Positions 34,904-54,618 of a stretch of DNA of 64,000 nucleotides are shown piece after piece. A program made the position numbers and the translations under genes. The number at the start of each line of letters is the position of its first letter. Within the stretch, counting starts at the first letter, position 1. The stretch lies in the IMG/VR virus record IMGVR_UViG_3300005326_000004. The stretch is one strand, 5' to 3'. The notes beneath the pieces are model-generated. The model did no database searches and had not been told where the DNA came from. It worked only from the letters and a program-made list of their open reading frames with translations. The DNA is from an uncultured virus (IMG/VR IMGVR_UViG_3300005326_000004) (taxonomy: Duplodnaviria; Heunggongvirae; Uroviricota; Caudoviricetes).

Positions 34904-37339
34904 TTATGCAACCTCTTTCATATCCAGCCAATTGGGGCCTTCCTGCCACTCAACTTCAAGTTCAGCCCCCTTATAAAAATTCCACCGGTATTTATCCCGT
35001 GAAATATTGTTTATAACTTCCTGTGCGTCCTCCCTTTCGGCTTTTACGGTATCAAGCACCATCGAGTCGTGAATCTGCAAAACCACCCGTGACTTCAACC
35101 CTTCCTTCTCCAACGCTTTGTTGACAAAAACCCGAATAAGTGAGTCCAACAAGCAATGGAACGTAGTTCCCTGTATTGGGGTATTCACCACTTGCATATA
35201 TGTCAACGGTCCACGTCTCCGGAAACCCGTAGGTATTTCAACATACCCATTTTCCAAGTAAAATTTCCATTGATGTTCCTGCCATTTTTTCACACCCGAA
35301 TACATCGTGTAAAACTCTTCTTCAACGGAAACAACATGCTTTTCCGGTAAACCCAATTGTGGAGCACATGACCGAGCGGACGCTCCATAAAACTCCGGGA
35401 ACACAAATTTGTTTTTGGCAAGGAACCGTTGTAATTTGGTTACAGCACTTTCAGGAACCTGGAACAACCGGGAAGCCCAAAACCGATGAGAGTTGAAATG
35501 TTCGTTGATTTGTTGCAATAAATTGCGGTCCTGTGCAAGAATGGCCTGAACCGTAACTTCCGCACCTTTATAGTCCGCTTCCATGAACAAATCGAATTCA
35601 GGGACGAACATCCTCCGGAAATTCTTCATGTATTCATCCCGTTTCGGAGCATTCTGTAAATTCGGGGAATCACACGAAGAACGCAATGTCCTTGCAATAT
35701 GTAAGTTGTATATGGCATGAAGTTTACCATCTTCACCAATATACTTCGGTATTGAATCCAGATACGTATTGGTCAATTTACCCAAACTCTTCTTGATCTG
35801 GATATTTTTTACAAGTTCCCCAATGTAATCTTCTCTTTGTTCGAGAACCTCAAACAATGCATCATTTACCTGGGGCTGCCCCTTGTCCGTTGTACTCAAC
35901 GGTTTCAACTTCAACATATCAAAAAGGAGCCGCTGCATATCCAAATTTGATGAAACATTCGGGACTTCCCCGTAACGTTTCTTGAAACTACCCCATGTAG
36001 CATCTTCCGCAAAGAACGTATTCACTTCCTTGGATTTGTCAGCCACTTCATTCCGAAAACGGTTGTATTCCTCCATATCTATTTTCACACCGTTTTCTTC
36101 CAATTCTGCTAACGCTTTGCTCCCGTCCATAAGGAACTTCATACCATCGGAATAACCCAACTCCTGAATTTCTTCATTATGGATTATCTGAATGTGATAC
36201 GGGAATATGGCATCCAATCCGGAATAATTTACCGCTTGATCGAAATTTTCAACCAATTCCTTTTTAAAGTCATCCTTGTTCACCGTTTGCTTGTATTCTT
36301 CCCCGGTTGTTTCAAACGTCAAGAATTCCAAGCTCTTCTTTTTCCTACGTTCATCAAGGATGTGTTTGGAAATCATTATATCCCAAACCCAGTTAGTAAT
36401 ACCAAAACCGAAAACGGCACGGGTACAGGAATCATCATACTTATGGCAATTGATCGGGTTATTCCGCAAAAACCAAGCAACCGATTTGAAAATATCCTCA
36501 TCTTTCGGGTACAACGGAATAACGTATCCGACTTCACCATCAAAACACACGGACATAAGAAGCAACTCAAACCCTTTGGCATACGGATGTAAACCCGTTG
36601 TCTCATAATCCATACTTACATACGTATCGTATTTTTTATTCAGGATGGACAATGCGAGTTCTTTATCGCAATATATCCGTTTCGTTGTGTCAAGGATGGA
36701 GACCGGGAATTCATAATCCAGATATTTCAAACCCCGCTCAATATCATCAAAGAATACATCCGACATATCCGGATTACGCATTATAAATGCTGGATGGTAG
36801 TTCAAACTTACCCAGGCATTATACCTACGTATCGGGTAAACATCCCCGTGAATCGTTTTGAACCCTTCCGCTTTTCCACTTAACCCTGGAATCTGAATGT
36901 TTTCCGTTTCGATCAATCGCTTGGCTGCTCTTTGTCCGAACGCAAAAATAAGATAAGGATTGAACTCCTGGATTTGACGTTCCAAACGATGATAACAAAA
37001 TTCCACTTTGGTTTCATCAAATTCATTGTTCTTCGGCCTACATTGGAGAACGTTTGTCCGGATACAATCCCTATCCAAATCAACGCCATACAAACCAAAC
37101 GCTTCTTTTAAACGTTCCCCACTTTCACCAATGAACGGGATACCGGTATCATCTTCGTTTGCTCCAGGAGCTTCCCCCACAATCATTATTTTCTTTTTGC
37201 CTTCACCATACGGCTTGATCATGGGGGACTTCACACCTCGAAACATCCCGCAGTATGTACAGGAATTTTCATCCATCGGGTTATGTATAATTATCTTACC
37301 CGCAATTTCATTAGGATCAAAAAAGAAACCGTTTCCCAT
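34904..37339 (-). CDS. polA: Family A DNA polymerase with N-terminal uracil-DNA glycosylase (family 4-like) domain
   Basis: UDG: VGEAPG..ED..G.PF.G, CRP, YHPA. Exonuclease: DYETTGL. Polymerase: PNLQN, ADY...E, R..AK, QIHDS. Confidence 0.92.
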   Translation of the reverse strand: MGNGFFFDPNEIAGKIIIHNPMDENSCTYCGMFRGVKSPMIKPYGEGKKKIMIVGEAPGANEDDTGIPFIGESGERLKEAFGLYGVDLDRDCIRTNVLQCRPKNNEFDETKVEFCYHRLERQIQEFNPYLIFAFGQRAAKRLIETENIQIPGLSGKAEGFKTIHGDVYPIRRYNAWVSLNYHPAFIMRNPDMSDVFFDDIERGLKYLDYEFPVSILDTTKRIYCDKELALSILNKKYDTYVSMDYETTGLHPYAKGFELLLMSVCFDGEVGYVIPLYPKDEDIFKSVAWFLRNNPINCHKYDDSCTRAVFGFGITNWVWDIMISKHILDERRKKKSLEFLTFETTGEEYKQTVNKDDFKKELVENFDQAVNYSGLDAIFPYHIQIIHNEEIQELGYSDGMKFLMDGSKALAELEENGVKIDMEEYNRFRNEVADKSKEVNTFFAEDATWGSFKKRYGEVPNVSSNLDMQRLLFDMLKLKPLSTTDKGQPQVNDALFEVLEQREDYIGELVKNIQIKKSLGKLTNTYLDSIPKYIGEDGKLHAIYNLHIARTLRSSCDSPNLQNAPKRDEYMKNFRRMFVPEFDLFMEADYKGAEVTVQAILAQDRNLLQQINEHFNSHRFWASRLFQVPESAVTKLQRFLAKNKFVFPEFYGASARSCAPQLGLPEKHVVSVEEEFYTMYSGVKKWQEHQWKFYLENGYVEIPTGFRRRGPLTYMQVVNTPIQGTTFHCLLDSLIRVFVNKALEKEGLKSRVVLQIHDSMVLDTVKAEREDAQEVINNISRDKYRWNFYKGAELEVEWQEGPNWLDMKEVA

Positions 37340-38409
37340 TATTTTTCATCCTTGATCGCTATAACCACTTCAAATTTATTGTCTTCGGATTCACTTGCAC
37401 CATACAAAAGCGGGGTTTTCTCCGTGCAAAATGAAAACATATCGCAGGTGTTGAGCATGGCTACAAAGTGATACGGATTGACATTGAAGGGTTTATTGTA
37501 CAACGTATTCCCGAAATTGAAGTACTCCTTGATCTCCGTGGTATCCCCTTCATACGACAACTTCAACGAATCCCCAAACTCAATTGTAACGGATTTCTTT
37601 TCAGATATTTCATCCGAAAAATCCCCGATACGTTTCAAACCCTCCACCAATTCAGAACCGGGGAATTCAACCAACTCCGGTGCTTTCGGGAAAAATTTGT
37701 TGGCTTGAATTTTGAACACCACTTGCATGTTTGCACCAAACACAATAACCTGTTTTCCCGTTTCAGGATCAACGGTATGTATGGCAATCGAGTTTGCTTC
37801 ATCGGAGTAAAACGAATCAATTTCAGGGATACCCCGTAACCCCAAAATGAAATCCCTGGACAGAACCACCTGTCGGGTATCCGGGAATATCTTGGTTTTG
37901 AGTGTCATACGGGAAATCCGTTTACCATCCGTACTCAATACAATTTTGTCACTGAAATAAACACCCGATGAATCGAAATTCTCCACCGCTGAAAACATGC
38001 TGCATTTCCGCAAACCATCCAGGAAACCGGCAGGGGGAACAACGAACTTTTCTTTTTGTTCGTTCACTATGGTATTGATCACCGTGAATTCAGGGAACAT
38101 ACTTTTATCAAGTAAGCTGATGGAAACGGAAGCCCTGCCGGCTTTCAACTTCAAAACGGTATCGGTATTTTCCTCAACATCAACATTTTCCGCTCGAACG
38201 GACTTGACGAACGTATACAATTTCCCAAACGGTATCAACCCTTGTATCTCATTCCCCACACCCGTTACTTTCGTACCAACTGAACGGTTGTATGTAACTG
38301 CCGAATCGTTGGCAAACATAACACACTGCAATGCTGGTACTACGTCCCGTTTATCAACGGTATTTTTTACCGTTTCCAATACGGATAACAATGCTGCTGT
38401 ATTCATCAA
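37339..38409 (-). CDS. dnaN: DNA sliding clamp (beta subunit-like)
   Basis: 356 aa; V.K....P.L, FP, SGVY and STDGKR motifs. Confidence 0.75.
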   Translation of the reverse strand: MMNTAALLSVLETVKNTVDKRDVVPALQCVMFANDSAVTYNRSVGTKVTGVGNEIQGLIPFGKLYTFVKSVRAENVDVEENTDTVLKLKAGRASVSISLLDKSMFPEFTVINTIVNEQKEKFVVPPAGFLDGLRKCSMFSAVENFDSSGVYFSDKIVLSTDGKRISRMTLKTKIFPDTRQVVLSRDFILGLRGIPEIDSFYSDEANSIAIHTVDPETGKQVIVFGANMQVVFKIQANKFFPKAPELVEFPGSELVEGLKRIGDFSDEISEKKSVTIEFGDSLKLSYEGDTTEIKEYFNFGNTLYNKPFNVNPYHFVAMLNTCDMFSFCTEKTPLLYGASESEDNKFEVVIAIKDEK

Positions 38410-40384: not shown

Positions 40385-41131
40385 ATGGATGCTACTACTA
40401 ACTCGAATGACTTTGTTGGTCTCGCCAACAAACTGATGGAAACGGGAACGCCCCTGACTGACTTCGTTGGAAAATGGGTTAAGGGTATTGATGGTGAAGG
40501 GAACGTGATCGAAGGCGAAGTGGTTTCCGTCAATGAAACCGAAGGAACCCTCACTTTCCGTGACAAAACCGGAAAGGGTTACACTGCCACTCCGGAGGAT
40601 GTGGAAATCGTTGAAAAGCGTACCAAGAAATCCACCAAGAAAACCGAAGCGAAAGTGAAACCCCCGAAGGAACCGAAGGCCCCGAAGGAGCCGAAAGTGG
40701 CCAAACCGAAGAAAACCATTCAGGAGAAAATGCACGAAAAGTACTTTGACAAGTACATTATCGTGAAAGCCACCAAGGAGGAAGGGCTGGTTATCGGAGC
40801 AACCGAAGATGGAAAACTCGAAGTCGAGTTACCTGATTCCACTGCCGTGTTCGCTCCGGAGGAAGTCCGCATGAAGTCCACTCGGGTTCTCAAACCGAAA
40901 AAGGAGAAACCCCCGAAGGTGGAACGTGAAGTCAATTTCGAGTACCACCGTTCGCTCCTCAATCTGTTCAAAGCCGGGGGAGCCAAGAAAGACATCATGG
41001 CGAAAATGCTGGAAACGCACCCCGAACTCGGACGTGGAACCATCAGCGTTATGCTTTACGAATGTTCCAAATTCGCAGTTGCTGCCGGGATGATCACCAT
41101 GACCCGGAAGGATATTACCCCCGTGGTGTAA
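40385..41131 (+). CDS. Lys/Glu-rich hypothetical protein
   Basis: PKEPK/PK repeats between two small beta-barrel-like segments; first gene of the plus-strand block. Confidence 0.7.
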   Translation: MDATTNSNDFVGLANKLMETGTPLTDFVGKWVKGIDGEGNVIEGEVVSVNETEGTLTFRDKTGKGYTATPEDVEIVEKRTKKSTKKTEAKVKPPKEPKAPKEPKVAKPKKTIQEKMHEKYFDKYIIVKATKEEGLVIGATEDGKLEVELPDSTAVFAPEEVRMKSTRVLKPKKEKPPKVEREVNFEYHRSLLNLFKAGGAKKDIMAKMLETHPELGRGTISVMLYECSKFAVAAGMITMTRKDITPVV

Positions 41132-41274
41132 CCAGCGGGGTAGTGAACCAACCAGAAGGGGGTATCGGATGCCGTTCTACCGTGATTCTTATGCCCAAAA
41201 TTCGATTATCGCCTATTAACCCCTATTCCGATGCCCCCTTACCAAAAACGTTGAAAAAATGGGGAATTCTCATA

Positions 41275-41652
41275 ATGTTCACAATTGAAACCACATTTGT
41301 AATTTCCGCAGCCCACAAATTGAATCTTCCGTACAAATCGAAATGCTCTGAATTCCACGGGCATAATTGGACTATCACCGTAGGTCTTGCGGCTGAAAAC
41401 ACGAACCGGTATGGTATGATTGTTGACTTCGGGAAGATCAAGGAATTGCTCCACCACCTTGATCATAGCAACTTGAACACGTTCATTATCCAGCCCACTG
41501 CTGAAAACATTTCCGAATACATTTTTGATATTGTTGAAAGAGCGTGCATCAACGAGTACCCGAATGTAGCCATACCAGAAAGACCGTTCGTGCGCTTTGT
41601 CGATGTGGAGGAAAGTGAAGGTAACTGCGCTACATATTACCGGGAGTATTAA
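41275..41652 (+). CDS. queD: 6-carboxytetrahydropterin synthase
   Basis: SAAH, C...HGHNW, DFG, LDH..LN and PTAEN motifs; start at the ATG at 41275. Confidence 0.92.
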   Translation: MFTIETTFVISAAHKLNLPYKSKCSEFHGHNWTITVGLAAENTNRYGMIVDFGKIKELLHHLDHSNLNTFIIQPTAENISEYIFDIVERACINEYPNVAIPERPFVRFVDVEESEGNCATYYREY

Positions 41653-42270
41653 ATGCATACATACCGGGTAAACAGCATTTTCAGAAGTTTCCAAGGGGAA
41701 GGATTATATACCGGATGCCGGACTGTTTTTGTCCGGTTTTCTGGTTGTAATTTGCAATGCCCGTTCTGTGATACCGCATATGATACATATACGGAAATGA
41801 CTTCACAGGAAATATTCCTCGAAATAATGCATGTTAGTAATTACAATCCACCACCCCAGTTTGTGGTATTGACCGGGGGAGAACCATCATTGCAAGTTGA
41901 TATGGAGTTGATGGAGAAACTTCGGACATACTACCAAGTTCATATGGAAACGAACGGGGAAATTGAAATTGATCAACGTATTGTGGATATGATCGAATGT
42001 TTGACTGTTTCCCCGAAAACATATACATTCAAACAACGGGAAGGGACCGTTCTCAAGTTATTATGGCATGGGGAGACATACCAGGAAATCCAATCGTACC
42101 TCGCCAATACGTGTTTTTCCGAGTTCTTTATCCAGCCGGATTCAACATATGTCCATATACCAGTAAATAACCAGATTGATTTGCATAAACTCGAGAATTA
42201 CTTGTATGTCGCAAATATGTTGGACTTACGGTTGAGTTTACAAATTCATAAAATATTAGGGATTTCATAA
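41653..42270 (+). CDS. queE: 7-carboxy-7-deazaguanine synthase (radical SAM)
   Basis: SFQGEG, GCNLQCPFCDT, TGGEP, ETNG, SPK and SLQIHK motifs. Confidence 0.95.
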   Translation: MHTYRVNSIFRSFQGEGLYTGCRTVFVRFSGCNLQCPFCDTAYDTYTEMTSQEIFLEIMHVSNYNPPPQFVVLTGGEPSLQVDMELMEKLRTYYQVHMETNGEIEIDQRIVDMIECLTVSPKTYTFKQREGTVLKLLWHGETYQEIQSYLANTCFSEFFIQPDSTYVHIPVNNQIDLHKLENYLYVANMLDLRLSLQIHKILGIS

Positions 42271-42271
42271 T

Positions 42272-42835
42272 ATGGCGAATATATGGAATGATTATCAAGA
42301 TGCTAAAAGGCACTTGGTATGTCTATTACAATACATCGGGGAAGACCCGTTGAGGGAAGGATTGATAGATACTCCTGAACGGATACTCCGATCATGGAAG
42401 GAATTGTTTTCCGGGTATCAAGCCAACCCGGATGATATATTAACGTGTTTTGAAGACGGTGCTTGTAATGAAATGATTGCCATTCGTGGTATTGAGTTCT
42501 TCTCAACGTGTGAACATCATTTCCTTCCGTTCTTTGGAACCGTTGATATTGGGTATATTCCGAATGGTCGAGTTATCGGATTGTCCAAACCCGCCCGATT
42601 GGTGGAAATATTTTCGAGACGGTTACAAATTCAAGAACGGTTGACAACGCAGATTGCTGATGCTCTTGTTGAGTATTTGCAACCAAAGGGAGTCATGGTT
42701 GTAGTGAAAGCGAAACACTTTTGTATGACTTGCCGTGGTGTAAAACAGCCCAACAGCACTGCCGTGACCAGTGCAATACGGGGAGTGTTCCAGGACCTGG
42801 ATGCCCGTACCGAATTTATGAGGTTGACACAATGA
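42272..42835 (+). CDS. folE: GTP cyclohydrolase I
   Basis: REGL.DTP.R, CEHH, GLSK, RRLQIQE and HFCM..RG motifs. Confidence 0.95.
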   Translation: MANIWNDYQDAKRHLVCLLQYIGEDPLREGLIDTPERILRSWKELFSGYQANPDDILTCFEDGACNEMIAIRGIEFFSTCEHHFLPFFGTVDIGYIPNGRVIGLSKPARLVEIFSRRLQIQERLTTQIADALVEYLQPKGVMVVVKAKHFCMTCRGVKQPNSTAVTSAIRGVFQDLDARTEFMRLTQ

Positions 42836-43551
42836 GTAAAGCAATGGTTGTTTTTTCAGGTGGTCAAGATTCCACTACGTGCCTCGCATTAGCGCGGGAA
42901 GGAGTGAAAGATGGTGAGTACGAGGGTGTAATTGCCATTTCATTCATGTACGAGCAAAAGCATGCAACAGCCGAGTTGAATGCTGCTCGGCAAATTGTAC
43001 GGGAATGGGATATTCCACACAAACTTGTATATTTGAATATCCCATCAGTATCCGCGCTCCTTACCAGAAATGGGAGGTACGTTGCTGATGTTAATGGACC
43101 ACACCCGCAGCATCCCGATCTCCCGGCCTCGTTCGTTCCTGATCGGAATGCATATTTTTTGCTTATTGCTCACATGAATGCACAAGTGTATGGATGTGAT
43201 ACCATAATGGCTGGAATGAACCAAACGGATTACAGTGGTTATCCGGATTGCCGGGAGGAATTTCTCGTTCCATACATGAATGCTCTCAACATTGGGAGTG
43301 GAACCAACATAAAAGCGAAATTCCCATTGTTGCACAAATCGAAAGCAGAAATATGGAAAATGGCTTTTGACTTGGGAGTGTACCGTACCATCGTGTATGA
43401 AACCCATACGTGCTACAATGGGGAAACCACATCACTTCACGCTTGGGGCTTTGGTTGTGGTGAATGTCCCGCATGTGTGATCAGGCGGGAATCATGGGAA
43501 CAATTCATGAAAGACATAGGAGGAGATATCAATGCCAAGATCCGAGGGTAA
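42832..43551 (+). CDS. queC: 7-cyano-7-deazaguanine synthase
   Basis: FSGGQDS, VP.RN, GYPDCR, TCY and GCGECPAC motifs; start at 42832. Confidence 0.95.
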   Translation: MSKAMVVFSGGQDSTTCLALAREGVKDGEYEGVIAISFMYEQKHATAELNAARQIVREWDIPHKLVYLNIPSVSALLTRNGRYVADVNGPHPQHPDLPASFVPDRNAYFLLIAHMNAQVYGCDTIMAGMNQTDYSGYPDCREEFLVPYMNALNIGSGTNIKAKFPLLHKSKAEIWKMAFDLGVYRTIVYETHTCYNGETTSLHAWGFGCGECPACVIRRESWEQFMKDIGGDINAKIRG

Positions 43552-43930
43552 ACGATTCAGACGGAAAAGCCCGTCTCACATCAAAGTGAATTTTTTGGAG
43601 ACGATTCCGTTTGATTGTGTTACGCAAAAGATCGTAATCGAAACGAAGGAGTTCTCTGCTGTATGCCCGTTCTCCGGTCTTCCGGATATTGCCAAAGTGG
43701 TTATTGTATATTACCCAGTTGGCAAAAGGATCATTGAATTGAAATCGTTGAAGTACTACTTCATGTCGTTTCGGGACGTAGGAGTGTACCAGGAACAAGC
43801 CACCGCAATTATCTTTGAAGATTTGAGCAGAGTATTGGGTATTTCCGAGGAAGGCCTCCAGGTCATAACCACGTATAATACCCGTGGTGGAATGGACGTT
43901 GTTTGCCAAATGGGATGTAATATTTTATGA
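43532..43930 (+). CDS. queF: preQ0 reductase (type I QueF)
   Basis: EFSAVCPFSGLPD, the QueF motif ELKSLKYY and C-terminal RGG. Confidence 0.88.
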   Translation: MPRSEGKRFRRKSPSHIKVNFLETIPFDCVTQKIVIETKEFSAVCPFSGLPDIAKVVIVYYPVGKRIIELKSLKYYFMSFRDVGVYQEQATAIIFEDLSRVLGISEEGLQVITTYNTRGGMDVVCQMGCNIL

Positions 43931-44697
43931 AGTACTTTTTCTCTTCACCGTCTTCCAGCTCCCTCCCGGTAATGAGGGAGCTGGGAGTTAATAATTATCT
44001 GTTCAGTTTCATGGTAGGCGGGAAAACATGGTATAAAGTTGTGCAACCAACGGAAACCGTATTGATGGATTCCGGAGCGTTTTCCGTATGGAACAGTGGG
44101 AAAACGATTGACATTGTGCAATACAAGAATTTCCTGAAAACGTTACCCGATCATTTTTTGAAGGTATCGTTGGATGTTATACCCAAAACCGGGAGTACCC
44201 CCAAAGAAATTGAGCATTGTTGTGAACAAGGAATTGAGAATTACAAGTTCCTGTGTGATGGAGTGAAAAACGTTATGCCCGTATATCATTACGGGGAACA
44301 TGAACGGTTTCTCAAAACGTATATGGAATATACGGATTACATTGGAATCAGTCCCGCAAATGACACATCCGAAAAATGCAAACGTCAATTCTTTTCCCAA
44401 GTATTTTCCATATTGGGGAGTAAAATACGTACCCATGCTTTTGGCTATTCATCTTTTTCTGGATTGGTTTTATATCCCTTCACCTCGGTTGATAGCATTA
44501 CTTACAACCGCTGGCAAAAACCAAGGGGAAAGAGAGGATGTATGTTTCGTGAGGATGATTATACCATCAAAAATATCCGAATCAATTCAACGTCATTGAA
44601 CTATTTTTTATATGAACGAATTCGGGTATTCTTGGAATACGAAAAGTTCATAACCGAATTATGGGAAGGTCGGGGTATCTCATGGAGCACAACGTAA
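43927..44697 (+). CDS. dpdA: DpdA-like DNA-guanine transglycosylase (TGT fold)
   Basis: MDSGAFS, LDVIP, PVYH, HAFG and SVDS motifs; adjacent to the que genes. Confidence 0.78.
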   Translation: MKYFFSSPSSSSLPVMRELGVNNYLFSFMVGGKTWYKVVQPTETVLMDSGAFSVWNSGKTIDIVQYKNFLKTLPDHFLKVSLDVIPKTGSTPKEIEHCCEQGIENYKFLCDGVKNVMPVYHYGEHERFLKTYMEYTDYIGISPANDTSEKCKRQFFSQVFSILGSKIRTHAFGYSSFSGLVLYPFTSVDSITYNRWQKPRGKRGCMFREDDYTIKNIRINSTSLNYFLYERIRVFLEYEKFITELWEGRGISWSTT

Positions 44698-45158
44698 TAC
44701 CAATTGACCAATTATATACCCCTGAATGGTATTGTAAGCAAGACGTGGAATCAGCCGTTCGTTTCAAATTGACGAATTCAATAAAACGTTATGGATACGG
44801 AGTTATCATTGTAAATGTTAGTTTTAATGGTTGTTATGATATAATTGATGGTAACACCCGTGTTGACATTTTGAAAGAAATGGGGTACAAAGAAGTCCAT
44901 TGTGAAATGCATAAACTTTCTGAATGGGAAGCCATCATATTTTCCTACAACCTCAACCGACATTGGAGTGAGGAGCACATAATTAAATTTTCACGGATAT
45001 TGGTTGATAGGGTACTTCCTTATATCAGCCCCGTGGAAATGTCAAACTTCGTGCCCGAAAGTGTGGGGCAGATAAACAGTTTGATGAATTTGTGTACGTT
45101 TGAATGGGAGAAGCACTTGAAAACCGATAACAATTTATTTGATTGGATGGATGAATGA
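44682..45158 (+). CDS. ParB/Srx-like domain protein
   Basis: L.NSIKRYG...IIV...YDIIDGNTRV motif. Confidence 0.75.
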   Translation: MEHNVIPIDQLYTPEWYCKQDVESAVRFKLTNSIKRYGYGVIIVNVSFNGCYDIIDGNTRVDILKEMGYKEVHCEMHKLSEWEAIIFSYNLNRHWSEEHIIKFSRILVDRVLPYISPVEMSNFVPESVGQINSLMNLCTFEWEKHLKTDNNLFDWMDE

Positions 45159-45673
45159 TCATAAATATGTTATTCCATGAAGATGCTATCCTGAAACGCA
45201 TCAATGATACTGCACTGTTTATTCGGGAGCGTTACCGTGTTACCGGGGGGAACAAAGAGATCGTTTTGGTTATACTGGCAAATGGGGGTTTACGTTTCGG
45301 AAGAAAATTGATCAAATTGTTGGAGTACTACAACGTACCGTTCATTTCCGAAATTGTACGAGCAAACTCATATGAAGGAACCGAACGGAAAGATGTACAC
45401 ATTCGGAAACGTAAACTTGATGTGACGGGTAAACTCGTTTTCGTGATTGATGATATTATTGATTCTGGTGAAACAATGCAATCCGTAACAACGTGGCTTG
45501 GTTCATACGCTCCACATCGGTTATATGTGATCACGTTGCTTACCCGTAAGCCTGGTACAGCGGACTTTGAGGGTTTTGATATTAGCGAGGAAAACCGTTT
45601 TGTGATCGGTTTCGGTATGGATTACAATGGTAATTTCCGTGGTGTAAACGACATTTACACATTGGTTTTATGA
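45155..45673 (+). CDS. hpt: Hypoxanthine/guanine phosphoribosyltransferase-like protein
   Basis: SY loop, VFVIDDIIDSGETM PRPP-binding motif and FVIGFGMDY motif. Confidence 0.88.
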   Translation: MIINMLFHEDAILKRINDTALFIRERYRVTGGNKEIVLVILANGGLRFGRKLIKLLEYYNVPFISEIVRANSYEGTERKDVHIRKRKLDVTGKLVFVIDDIIDSGETMQSVTTWLGSYAPHRLYVITLLTRKPGTADFEGFDISEENRFVIGFGMDYNGNFRGVNDIYTLVL

Positions 45674-47259
45674 TCAAAGAAATTAAACGAATCAATTACA
45701 AATCATTACCACGGGAGGAGTTTGAGTCGTGGCTCGATGGTTACATTACCTTCGAGCCATCGTTACTCACTCACCAGTTGGCTTCTGTGTGCTTTGCATT
45801 GGGGGAGGGGCTGACTCGGGTAATGTTTACAAACGATATTGGTACATGCAAAACATATACTTCTTTGGCGTTGTCCATGTGCTGGAAACCCAAAGGGCGA
45901 ATATTGGTTGTATGCCCGAATACCGTTGTATACACCACATGGGAAAAGCAAGTAAAGAAGTATACCAATTACGACTTTGAGGTGTTGACGGGTACGAAGT
46001 TGGAACGTGAAAAAACCCTTTTCACAACCAACAAAGATATGTACATTATCAATTACGAAGGATTACGGGTACTGTTTTGGGATACAATCGAAAACAACAA
46101 AGGTACCAAGAAAGGTGTTGTGAATTTAGCAAGAATAAAACAAGCAGGTTTCGAGCAAATTATATTCGATGAAATGCACCACCTGAAAGACGAAACCACA
46201 CAGCAAACGAAAATAGCCCGTGAGTTGTCCAAACGCGCTCGGTACGTGATCGGATTGACTGGTACTCCATTGGGTAAAAGTGTTTCCGATTTGTTTTCAC
46301 AATATTTGGTTCTGGACAATGGTGCTACATTGGGGGATAACCGTTTCTTATTTGAACGGGAGTACTTTTATAAACCGAGCATAAAAGTTCCTTACAAAAT
46401 GGAACCAAAACGGATATGTAGTATCTGTGGTGAACTGTATGATCACAAATTGAAACATTTGGAATTTCATAGAATATCCTTACCTGAATACCGTAAAAAG
46501 TTCCCGGTGGAAAAGACGGCTACCGATTTAATTTTAGATCGTGTGTCGTATTGTACATTACGGTACAGTAAGGAAGAATGTTTGGATTTACCAGACCAGA
46601 TATATCAGGTGCGTACGGTTGAACCATCCGTTGAGCAAACGCAAGTTACTCAAGAAGTCGTTTTAGGAATTCACGTCAACTCTCTTACCGAAAGCAACGT
46701 TGAGTACCATACGCAAAAATTGGTACAAATCACCGGGGGTTTCTTACTGGATAAGGAAGGTAGTTGTGAAGTATACAAAACAAATCCGAAGTTGCAGGAA
46801 TTGGGAGAAACCCTTTCACAAATATCTGGTAAGTGTATCATATATCATTATTACGTCAAAGAATCCGAATTGATCAGTGAGTACCTGAAAGATATGGGGT
46901 ACTCGTTTGTTGTGGTAAATGGTAACGTAAGTAAAGCCGAACAGAAAAAGCAAATTGATTCATTTATCAACGGGAATGTACAAGTACTTCTCGCAAATCC
47001 AAATAGTGGAGGTGAAGGGATTGATGGTTTACAAGTATCATCCACCATCATATATTACAGCAGAAGTTATATGGGTAGTATATTGCGTCAACAATCGGAA
47101 GGGCGTATACACCGGCAGGGCCAAAAAAACAACTGCGTGTATATAGACTTGGTTATGCATAACACAATAGACGAAATACTTTTTGATAATATGTCCAATT
47201 GTTCAAAACAATTTAAGAGTGTACTTACGTATTTGCAAAAAAAGTATAAAAAAGGTTGA
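45670..47259 (+). CDS. SNF2-family helicase/ATPase
   Basis: DIGTCKT, INYE, DEMH, LTGTP and QSEGRIHRQGQ motifs. Confidence 0.88.
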   Translation: MIKEIKRINYKSLPREEFESWLDGYITFEPSLLTHQLASVCFALGEGLTRVMFTNDIGTCKTYTSLALSMCWKPKGRILVVCPNTVVYTTWEKQVKKYTNYDFEVLTGTKLEREKTLFTTNKDMYIINYEGLRVLFWDTIENNKGTKKGVVNLARIKQAGFEQIIFDEMHHLKDETTQQTKIARELSKRARYVIGLTGTPLGKSVSDLFSQYLVLDNGATLGDNRFLFEREYFYKPSIKVPYKMEPKRICSICGELYDHKLKHLEFHRISLPEYRKKFPVEKTATDLILDRVSYCTLRYSKEECLDLPDQIYQVRTVEPSVEQTQVTQEVVLGIHVNSLTESNVEYHTQKLVQITGGFLLDKEGSCEVYKTNPKLQELGETLSQISGKCIIYHYYVKESELISEYLKDMGYSFVVVNGNVSKAEQKKQIDSFINGNVQVLLANPNSGGEGIDGLQVSSTIIYYSRSYMGSILRQQSEGRIHRQGQKNNCVYIDLVMHNTIDEILFDNMSNCSKQFKSVLTYLQKKYKKG

Positions 47260-53317: not shown

Positions 53318-53728
53318 ATGTGTCTTAATATACGACTTGGTAAACGGATAATGAAAAAGGATACCACGATTTATAGAGTAGTAGAAGTACGTGATGGTTT
53401 ATATTACTCTTGCCTTTTCGATAAGGATAGTGGTTTTCATCACGGAGTAAACCGTGCAGTAGTCTGTCCTGTTGTGTATATGACAAAAAAAGGTAGACGA
53501 ATGTATCCATCCGGTTATCATTGTTTCACAAAACGTAGTGATGCAAAAATATATAAAGAAGAATTTTTGGAAGCGCTTTACAAGTGTCTTGACTTACCGT
53601 TACCATACTATAAAATTGTTGTGTTCACTATTCCACAAGGAGTAAAAACATATGCGGGATATACTAAATTAGAAAACACAGATAGAAAAATGTATACGTT
53701 GGTTTCCCCCATACTTGTTTTGAAATGA
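53318..53728 (+). CDS. Tandem paralog 1, unknown function
   Basis: MCL.IRLG...YPSGYHCF...YTLVSP. Confidence 0.75.
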   Translation: MCLNIRLGKRIMKKDTTIYRVVEVRDGLYYSCLFDKDSGFHHGVNRAVVCPVVYMTKKGRRMYPSGYHCFTKRSDAKIYKEEFLEALYKCLDLPLPYYKIVVFTIPQGVKTYAGYTKLENTDRKMYTLVSPILVLK

Positions 53729-53743
53729 ATGAAAGGGTAAACT

Positions 53744-54178
53744 ATGTGTCTTGATATACGCCTTGGTAAACGGATAATGAAAAAGGCTACCACGGTTTAC
53801 AAAGTGGTACGGGTTATTTACCTACGCGGTCAGGAGATTTATACACCATGCTTTTTCCCGTTGTCCCCTGTTTTTAAAAAAGGTGTTAATCATGCGGATG
53901 TGACTGCAATTTTGTATTCCACATATAGGGGCTACCATACATATCCATCGGGTTATCATTGTTTCCAGAAAGTGGGGGATGCCGAAGCATATATGAAGGA
54001 GTACTTGAATGGTGAGCTTGCACATGATGAATCCGTCAAAATTGTTGAATTCACCATCCCGCGAGGAGTGGAAGTATATGCGGGCTACACCTCGGTATTA
54101 CCATCCACACATTTGAGGAATAGTCCAGTAGTTGGCAAACTGTATACGTTGGTTTCCCCAATTCTCATTTTGGAATAA
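53744..54178 (+). CDS. Tandem paralog 2, unknown function
   Basis: Same motifs. Confidence 0.75.
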   Translation: MCLDIRLGKRIMKKATTVYKVVRVIYLRGQEIYTPCFFPLSPVFKKGVNHADVTAILYSTYRGYHTYPSGYHCFQKVGDAEAYMKEYLNGELAHDESVKIVEFTIPRGVEVYAGYTSVLPSTHLRNSPVVGKLYTLVSPILILE

Positions 54179-54195
54179 ACGAAAGGAATACACTT

Positions 54196-54618
54196 ATGTG
54201 TTTAGATATCCGCCTGGGAGACAAAGTTCTAATGAGGGACACGGTTGTTTACAAAGTGGTAAGGTATTACAAACAAGGTGCAATGTCGTTTTTTGAACCG
54301 TGTTTCTTTGGAAGATACAGACATTTCAAAAAAGGTGTAAACTACGCAAGTGTACAACCAATTGAATATTATACATCGAAAGGGTTACGTACGTACCCGT
54401 CCGGGTATCATTGCTTTACGAGACGGGAAGCTGCAAAAATCTACATGGAAGAATTTTTTCAGGAGGAAGGTGCAACAATTTTGGAGTTTGTTATCCCAAA
54501 AGGTACCAAAGTATCCACCGGGTATACGGAAGTGTTTGATATAGTTGAACTTCGCAAATTGTATACGTTGGTTTCCCCGGTAATTGTGTGGAATAGAGAA
54601 GAAAGGTATGGTATATAA
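54196..54618 (+). CDS. Tandem paralog 3, unknown function
   Basis: Same motifs. Confidence 0.75.
   Translation: MCLDIRLGDKVLMRDTVVYKVVRYYKQGAMSFFEPCFFGRYRHFKKGVNYASVQPIEYYTSKGLRTYPSGYHCFTRREAAKIYMEEFFQEEGATILEFVIPKGTKVSTGYTEVFDIVELRKLYTLVSPVIVWNREERYGI

Follow-up and report, generated by a model that had tools for sequence, protein, structure and literature searches.

In the deazaguanine clusters of phages, it is established that DpdA swaps preQ1 for guanine in finished DNA, and the function of phage QueF has been described (PMC10516641). According to the same work, attempts to obtain activity from phiSM DpdA1, DpdA3 and DpdA4 in E. coli failed, phiSM DpdA1 alone being inactive there; the DpdA of phage 9g is active alone in this host (PMC6884629). 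Bacterial DpdA requires DpdB, a ParB-fold ATPase, and the DpdA/B pair is assayed by [14C]guanine exchange, with free guanine as a substrate that is exchanged into DNA in vitro (PMC10164549). That a phage ParB may act like DpdB has already been suggested in print, for the ParB-like ORF1 of mycobacteriophage CRB2 (PMC6392294). Among phosphoribosyltransferases (PRTases), TubE converts CDG and PRPP to CDG ribonucleotide and is encoded with folE, queD and queE (PMC6112128). Our literature search returned nothing that links a PRTase to phage DpdA or deazaguanine, and nothing on this point was seen in the accessible parts of PMC7824862, PMC13282480, PMC5699537 and two preprints; a work on Campylobacter phage DNA, a 2024 review and a 2013 survey may treat it. 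For DpdA or deazaguanine together with a sliding clamp, the search gave one review only, with unrelated uses, and the same three works may treat this subject as well.

The window studied here, that is, the whole stretch of 64,000 nucleotides, is a phage genome whose plus strand carries the run queD-queE-folE-queC-queF-dpdA-parB-hpt-SNF2, with all genes abutting or overlapping. Its biosynthetic part comprises queD for CPH4 synthase (41062..41652, +; PF01242, E 2e-24; TIGR03367 below cut-off; start codon uncertain), queE for the radical SAM CDG synthase (41653..42270, +; phrog_2076, E 1e-31), folE for GTP cyclohydrolase I, the GTP-consuming step (42272..42835, +; TIGR00063 above cut-off), queC for preQ0 synthase (42832..43551, +; TIGR00364 above cut-off) and a unimodular queF for preQ0 reductase (43532..43930, +; TIGR03139, 85.9 bits against a cut-off of 86.9). 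These are followed by dpdA (43927..44697, +; phrog_887, E 7e-39), encoding a DNA-guanine transglycosylase of the phiSM DpdA1 type with a C-terminal W..RG..W tail (tail profile score 51.6 bits) whose closest cultured relative is phiSM gp52 (46.5% identity). The set of DpdA with FolE, QueD, QueE as well as QueC and QueF that makes up the phage DpdA1 dPreQ1 system is complete, so that the operon would lead from GTP to preQ1 and DpdA would insert the latter in place of guanine. Because QueF is present and no DpdM-like gene was found in the window, we predict from the sequence, following PMC10516641, that the DNA of this phage would carry dPreQ1 as a protective substitute for guanine.

Downstream of dpdA lie a gene for a short ParB/Srx-fold protein of 158 amino acids (44682..45158, +; phrog_16545, E 3.2e-9), a gene for an HPRT-type purine PRTase of 172 amino acids (45155..45673, +; PF00156, E 7.8e-18) and a gene for an SNF2-family helicase with a putative role in modification (45670..47259, +), which holds an equal position in the related phage L084. 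As the first-pass annotation had read it, the two accessory genes overlap dpdA and each other: the ParB-like gene covers the 3' end of dpdA by 16 bp (an in-frame ATG at 44661 is an alternative start giving 165 amino acids) and shares an ATGA overlap with the HPRT-like gene. Since the SNF2 gene overlaps hpt by the same ATGA, overlap alone is little proof of a link to dpdA, and the case for such a link comes from the recurrence of the gene order in other phages. Within the operon, scans for promoters and terminators stayed at chance level (26 against 23.8 and 11 against 7.7, respectively). A divergent replication operon encodes DnaB, a phage beta-type sliding clamp (37339..38409, −; PF00712, E 3e-4; phrog_947, E 5e-25), PolA, a clamp-loader-like ATPase, a Nudix protein, ThyX and a thymidylate-kinase-like protein; the PolA (34904-37339, −) bears an N-terminal family-4 uracil-DNA-glycosylase domain. 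Ahead of queD, a Lys/Glu-rich protein without a Pfam match is encoded at 40385-41131 (+), and low-complexity proteins that resemble it are encoded within or next to the clusters of L084, L142 and phiSM (gp55). Three tandem ORFs of 136-144 amino acids at 53318-54618 (+) have a near-terminal LYTLVSP-like motif in common and are likely paralogues.

By its sequence and its structural model, the hpt product is an HPRT-type 6-oxopurine PRTase in predicted activity. The TIGR01203 model matches at E 2.5e-27, yet with 95.7 bits against an equivalog cut-off of 150, and the predicted structure superimposes on solved HPRTs with TM values of 0.80-0.82, displaying a type I PRTase fold with a hood. The protein keeps S72-Y73, D99-D100, D103, F149-V150, D156 and R162, which we take to include the SY loop, the acids of the PRPP loop (D99 and D100, with the invariant D103) and the late D156 and R162. 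PDB titles of solved HPRTs term the equivalent of D103 invariant; this residue is presumably the Asp that contacts purine N7, a role for which our literature search found no text. At position 131 the window protein has Arg where solved HPRTs have a Lys that presumably binds the 6-oxo group, and the same replacement is found in 60 of 69 que-linked HPRTs, a weak point of the salvage reading discussed below.

To place these genes, 96 DpdA relatives were aligned, and 218 dpdA loci (the best 80 out of 511 from viruses, the best 80 out of 502 from metagenomes and 58 from genomes) were combined with the window, phiSM and Mufasa8 into 172 clusters at 80% identity. Alignments were required, as single-sequence searches recovered only the window's own HPRT and ParB proteins and single-sequence locus scans recovered nothing. 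Within the loci listed, the order dpdA-parB-hpt was found in two other phage lineages, once in L087/L164 and once in L084, where it reads dpdA-parB-parB-hpt-SNF2. The linkage to dpdA proposed by the first-pass annotation, which had named its absence from related phages as evidence to the contrary, is thus present in the listed loci. The L084 region (L084:3680-6614) further contains a DpdM-like gene (44% to phiSM gp53) besides its pair of ParB-like paralogues, and its HPRT has a D100N replacement.

PRTases of some kind occur in 23 of the 172 dereplicated dpdA loci listed (the window included, and L010 without a PRPP loop) and in 17 of the 84 listed clusters with sufficient flank. These 23 comprise 5 HPRT-type proteins, 7 stand-alone Gpt-like proteins and 11 Gpt-FolE fusions, and all but one lie within 1.5 kb of a que or dpdA gene, compared to 49% of the DNA being that close; on a tree of 120 rows, the 20 carriers require 16 state changes. 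The PRPP-binding loop is lost in Gpt-like proteins of two que clusters (L010:6882-7235 and L025:5962-6336). A reverse search started from 243 confirmed viral HPRT loci and retained the best 80 by similarity to the window HPRT: in 63 of these, que genes occur no more than 8 kb away, in 47 of them within 200 bp, and the commonest que neighbour is folE. The 63 que-linked proteins form 8 clusters at 50% identity, with 46 of them in a single cluster, so that about 8 is closer to the number of independent cases. Of the remaining 17, 9 belong to one cluster resembling host hpt at prophage edges, and 3 are truncated members of a que-linked cluster. Wherever at least 5.5 kb downstream was available among these best 80, a TGT-like gene was found in 36 of 37 que-linked loci, and its 394-amino-acid type matches DpdA weakly (E 2e-4). 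Large marine phages (L225:12681-13865 and about 45 of L221-L300) combine folE-hpt-polB with a glycosyltransferase and encode a TGT-like protein of about 400 amino acids with a PIP-box-like FNQFF at its end; QueC and QueF were not found within 8 kb in phages of this type. In Brevundimonas phage StAshley (L303:6274-7429), a folE-PRTase adjoins a dNMP kinase and a ribonucleotide reductase, and other que genes were not found in the 14 kb seen.

Cultured phages have PRTases of the Gpt-like family, with the gene beside folE in immuto_2-6A and beside queE in PA5oct, fused to folE in the VpKK5 group, and unlinked to que genes in phiST and the CP220 group; one GenBank record for such a phage protein reads 'purine phosphoribosyltransferase / queuosine biosynthesis protein'. 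A Gpt-like PRTase is present in each of the three cultured lineages for which full replacement of G is reported (immuto_2-6A, phiST and CP220; levels from PMC10516641). A tblastn search of cultured phages gave no HPRT-type gene annotated beside dpdA, the 12 and 18 matches being host-type hpt in look. The enzyme is dispensable, since none of five phages, namely phiSM, 9g (in which up to 27% of G is modified), Dp-1, Mufasa8 and L003, has a PRTase. The link between PRTases and deazaguanine clusters is real, and the gene is a recurrent, optional accessory.

The first-pass annotation had offered three roles for the PRTase, namely recycling of the guanine released by DpdA, activation of preQ0 or preQ1 to a nucleotide, and further base modification together with the ParB-like protein, of which the first is now the best supported. 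In the salvage scheme, the HPRT would join released guanine to PRPP, giving GMP on the way back towards GTP for FolE, and would also clear away free guanine, a base that DpdA enzymes are able to put back. To weigh salvage against activation, we compared the N7-site Asp with the residue found in enzymes of the TubE/ToyH type. From 401 Streptomyces genomes, 40 queC regions yielded 11 PRTases in que clusters, including one cluster with the toyocamycin gene set and two with the tubercidin-type order GMP reductase-PRTase-UbiD; the comparison used such cluster-matched homologues rather than the TubE or ToyH sequences themselves. All 11 carry Gly at the position of the invariant HPRT Asp, as do 24 of 24 closest homologues of a ToyH-type query (10 of which are the same que-cluster genes, genomic context having been checked for part of the set), and Asp is found in 6 of 6 more distant Streptomyces paralogues. 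On the phage side, the Asp is kept in 69 of 69 que-linked HPRTs and in 5 of 5 cultured-phage PRTases, and the phage Gpt-like rows show Asp in 19 of 22, Glu in 1, no loop in 2 and Gly in none. The Gly feature was derived in the present analysis and not taken from print, and the contrast is weakened by the Gpt-like nature of the Gly-bearing enzymes, which may form a single lineage. Seven of the Streptomyces queC-queD-queE clusters (L345, L346, L347, L351, L372, L373 and L374) have a Gly-type PRTase in an order unlike toy or tub and are possible undescribed deazapurine nucleoside pathways.

Because the N7-site Asp is kept in the phage enzymes and replaced by Gly in those of the ToyH/TubE type, guanine salvage is the most likely role of the HPRT. 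Judged from sequence, the enzyme probably salvages the guanine released by DpdA, both returning it towards GTP and removing a re-insertable base. As the bacterial DpdA/B pair exchanges free guanine into DNA, draining guanine should favour the modified product. Recycling as such would be of little weight at the ∼1% modification of phiSM, since each genome would then give up only some 270 of the 27,319 G in the window, and the D100N replacement counts against a plain salvage enzyme in L084. It is very unlikely that the PRTase instead ribosylates a deazaguanine base (preQ0, preQ1 or CDG) to a nucleotide that is then reduced, phosphorylated and polymerised or serves a later step, even though TubE offers a precedent beside folE, queD and queE (PMC6112128), Gpt-like PRTases accompany all three fully replaced lineages, an ADG nucleoside occurs in CP220-infected cells and DpdA3 was not reconstitutable in E. 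coli (both PMC10516641), and Arg131 could bind a 7-substituent. Besides the Asp/Gly difference, the transglycosylase-like gene in nearly all que-linked HPRT loci with enough downstream sequence argues against such a route, and the kinase (28135) that the first-pass annotation had enlisted for preQ nucleotides is the thymidylate-kinase-like gene beside thyX, 16 kb off, with the Nudix gene likewise 14-16 kb away. Nor did the suggested incorporation by the phage PolA fare better: a DpoZ-like polymerase was rejected at 57 bits against a model cut-off of 500. Incorporation of deazaguanine at the nucleotide level is unlikely.

A role in general nucleotide supply, in which the HPRT would turn host purines into GTP for FolE and replication with no tie to DpdA guanine, is improbable but deserves more weight. 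It accords with folE, not dpdA, being the commonest neighbour, with the frequency of Gpt-FolE fusions, with the distance of the PRTase from the que genes in phiST and CP220 and with five viral HPRT records among the best 80 in which no FolE was seen (0 of 5, all of them incomplete), but it does not predict that 63 of these 80 phage HPRTs sit in que clusters. That both genes are mere passengers retained by synteny would suit the SNF2 gene, which shows the same kind of overlap and holds an unchanged position in L084, and the few independent tree events behind the ParB association. Two separate PRTase families recurring in que clusters of unrelated phages, and a ParB gene that remains beside dpdA while the que genes reshuffle, make this hardly credible.

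The ParB-like protein has the ParB N-terminal fold (model pLDDT 93; best fold matches ParB/Noc, E 8e-8) and, at 158 amino acids, little beyond it. Its NTP site is partly degenerate, with G57-N-T-R60 compared to G-N-H-R in the family and with N45 and D53 where the family has Arg and Glu, and its C-terminus consists of NNLF plus five residues. A partitioning ParB was rejected, since only the N-domain matches and the helix-turn-helix and dimerisation domains are missing; no parA was found among the flanking genes scanned. phiSM gp51 overlaps dpdA in the way the window gene does, and Mufasa8, like phiSM, has its ParB gene directly after dpdA. Among the dpdA loci listed, a downstream ParB accompanies 40 of 43 DpdAs with a W..RG..W tail and sufficient flank, compared to 1 of 90 tailless DpdAs. 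In two of the three tailed misses, an ORF of 150-159 amino acids and similar look (by eye) lies over the dpdA stop, leaving L142 with a tail and no ParB; in the lone tailless exception the tail lies behind an in-frame stop. The dpdA of L006 (L006:8001-8760) has an in-frame stop just ahead of its tail, perhaps a sequencing error or a case of read-through. About a dozen distant tailless DpdAs in the listed loci have a ParB gene upstream. A quick tree built from 120 catalytic cores shows 5 changes of the tail and 7 of ParB, and the test on independent pairs found 3 pairs, not significant, so that the counts overstate the evidence. L091/L096, nested in the phiSM clade, have neither tail nor ParB, and L175 contains one fusion of a DpdA-like protein with ParB. 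Tandem DpdA-like genes occur in L175 (1419-2624, the second fused to the ParB-like domain), L068, L071, L173, L197 and L215. A predicted complex of DpdA and the ParB-like protein scored 0.13 against a mark of 0.32 and counts neither way.

From these sequence associations and the analogy with DpdB, we consider it fairly probable that this DpdA subfamily has a dedicated partner in the ParB-like protein, which would occupy the place of bacterial DpdB and be needed to load or hold DpdA on DNA, leaving the base unchanged; the inactivity of phiSM DpdA1 alone fits this reading but could have other reasons. Whether it would act as an active DpdB-like NTPase or NTP-gated clamp in itself, with no link to the replication clamp, is more doubtful: G57 and R60 are kept, 32 partners have an intact G-x-H/Q-R motif, and both DpdB (PMC10164549) and the CRB2 ORF1 suggestion (PMC6392294) are at hand as precedents, but the window protein is hardly more than an N-terminal domain without the family His, Arg and Glu, and the Arg is missing altogether in phiSM gp51 and several close partners. 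Joint chemistry with the PRTase, adding a further group to the inserted base, is extremely improbable. ParB/Srx-fold proteins do include kinases (SbnI, a serine kinase, is among the fold matches), but the two genes mostly occur apart, and in ParB-bearing phiSM no bases other than dPreQ1 and mdPreQ1 were seen, mdPreQ1 being attributed to DpdM (PMC10516641). The joint modification envisaged in the first-pass annotation is further disfavoured by phiSM having ParB without a PRTase and by most PRTase-bearing clusters having no ParB. Because each mostly occurs without the other, ParB and PRTase appear to be independent accessories.

A further lead, and not a result, concerns the sliding clamp. In the loci listed, 46 of 83 tailless DpdAs, compared to 0 of 35 tailed ones, have a clamp gene no farther than 1.5 kb downstream or are fused to a clamp, using a custom profile whose calls were confirmed in a spot check for 6 of 8 by Pfam and for one more by PHROG. 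The 9g dpdA abuts a clamp gene, and the Dp-1 DpdA ends in QRRLF with DnaN nearby. Clamp-DpdA fusions (phrog_947 plus phrog_887) were seen in two contigs of one Syntrophobacteraceae assembly (L176:6696-9071 and L181:5167-7596). Clamp-binding proteins carry a terminal QL[SD]LF-like consensus. A loose version, [LMIF]F within the last nine residues, picked after seeing the sequences, occurs among the listed loci in 45 of 94 tailless DpdAs without ParB and 10 of 16 short degenerate ParBs, compared to 2 of 62 tailed DpdAs, 3 of 32 intact ParBs and 19 of 452 Que proteins; 4 of 39 window proteins also have it. The LF ending of tailless DpdAs is independent of a clamp gene in the locus (27 of 59 compared to 10 of 24), and the terminal motif is absent from the window PolA and immuto DpdA3. 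The window ParB-like protein is short, partly degenerate and endowed with the LF motif, and, like other short degenerate ParBs, it may, tentatively, serve as an adaptor to the clamp through this C-terminal motif, the window clamp (37339-38409) being the candidate docking site. More broadly, we speculate that phage DpdA1s ride the replisome: stand-alone enzymes would dock through their own LF motif or a fusion, whereas in the phiSM-like subfamily docking would have been handed to a ParB-fold partner that grips the W..RG..W tail, bears the clamp motif and decays into a pseudo-enzyme. If true, which we regard as possible but doubtful, base exchange would follow the phage fork, explaining how phage DNA is singled out, and a recurrently recruited PRTase would drain guanine and pull the reversible exchange forward.

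Taken together, the best explanation, to which we assign a probability of roughly 0.55 on sequence comparison, is a preQ1 operon with a guanine-salvaging HPRT and a ParB-like DpdA partner as independent accessories. For the phage DpdAs that stayed inactive in E. coli, enzymes that reach 1-100% replacement in phages, two candidate missing parts would be the ParB-like protein encoded over the end of dpdA, alone or combined with the phage clamp, and a PRTase that drains guanine. The results suggest that many phage 'purine salvage' auxiliary genes would belong to DNA-modification clusters and not to host metabolism, and Asp versus Gly is a proposed one-residue marker separating guanine-salvage from deazaguanine-activating PRTases.

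Compared to described systems, the locus represents a system of known kind that includes two accessory parts, both real and of putative function. It is closest to the phiSM dPreQ1/mdPreQ1 cluster (PMC10516641), with which it shares DpdA1 (gp52, 46.5%), the complete FolE/QueD/QueE/QueC/QueF set, a ParB-like gene over the dpdA stop (gp51) and an own beta clamp nearby; phiSM has DpdM and lacks a PRTase, whereas the window carries an HPRT but no DpdM-like gene. The main text and supplement of PMC10516641, as far as available, make no mention of ParB. Like DpdA-DpdB of Salmonella Montevideo (PMC10164549), the window pairs a DNA-guanine transglycosylase with an adjoining ParB-fold partner. DpdB is an 80-95 kDa dimer with DGQQR and a long helical C-terminal domain, unlike the window protein, which has 158 amino acids and DGNTR and resembles ParB/Noc N-domains. 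With the solved enzymes of E. coli (Hpt, 1G9S/8CAG), T. cruzi (1TC1) and human (1BZY), the HPRT shares its fold, its SY loop, its PRPP loop including D103, the FV-G-G-D residues and the late Arg; it is ∼30% identical to them and below the TIGR01203 cut-off, with DD replacing ED, Asn within the pyrophosphate loop and Arg for the presumed 6-oxo Lys. The TubE/ToyH PRTases (PMC6112128) are likewise type I enzymes encoded with folE, queD and queE; those of this type are Gpt-like, carry Gly for Asp and are flanked by GMP reductase with a lyase/synthetase or UbiD and no DpdA, whereas the window enzyme is HPRT-like, carries D103 and lies in an operon that has DpdA and none of these flanking genes. The Gpt-like PRTases of immuto_2-6A, phiST, the CP220 group, PA5oct and the VpKK5-group fusions belong to another PRTase family and are described by GenBank annotation only, but they share with the window the combination of a purine PRTase that keeps the Asp with deazaguanine genes.
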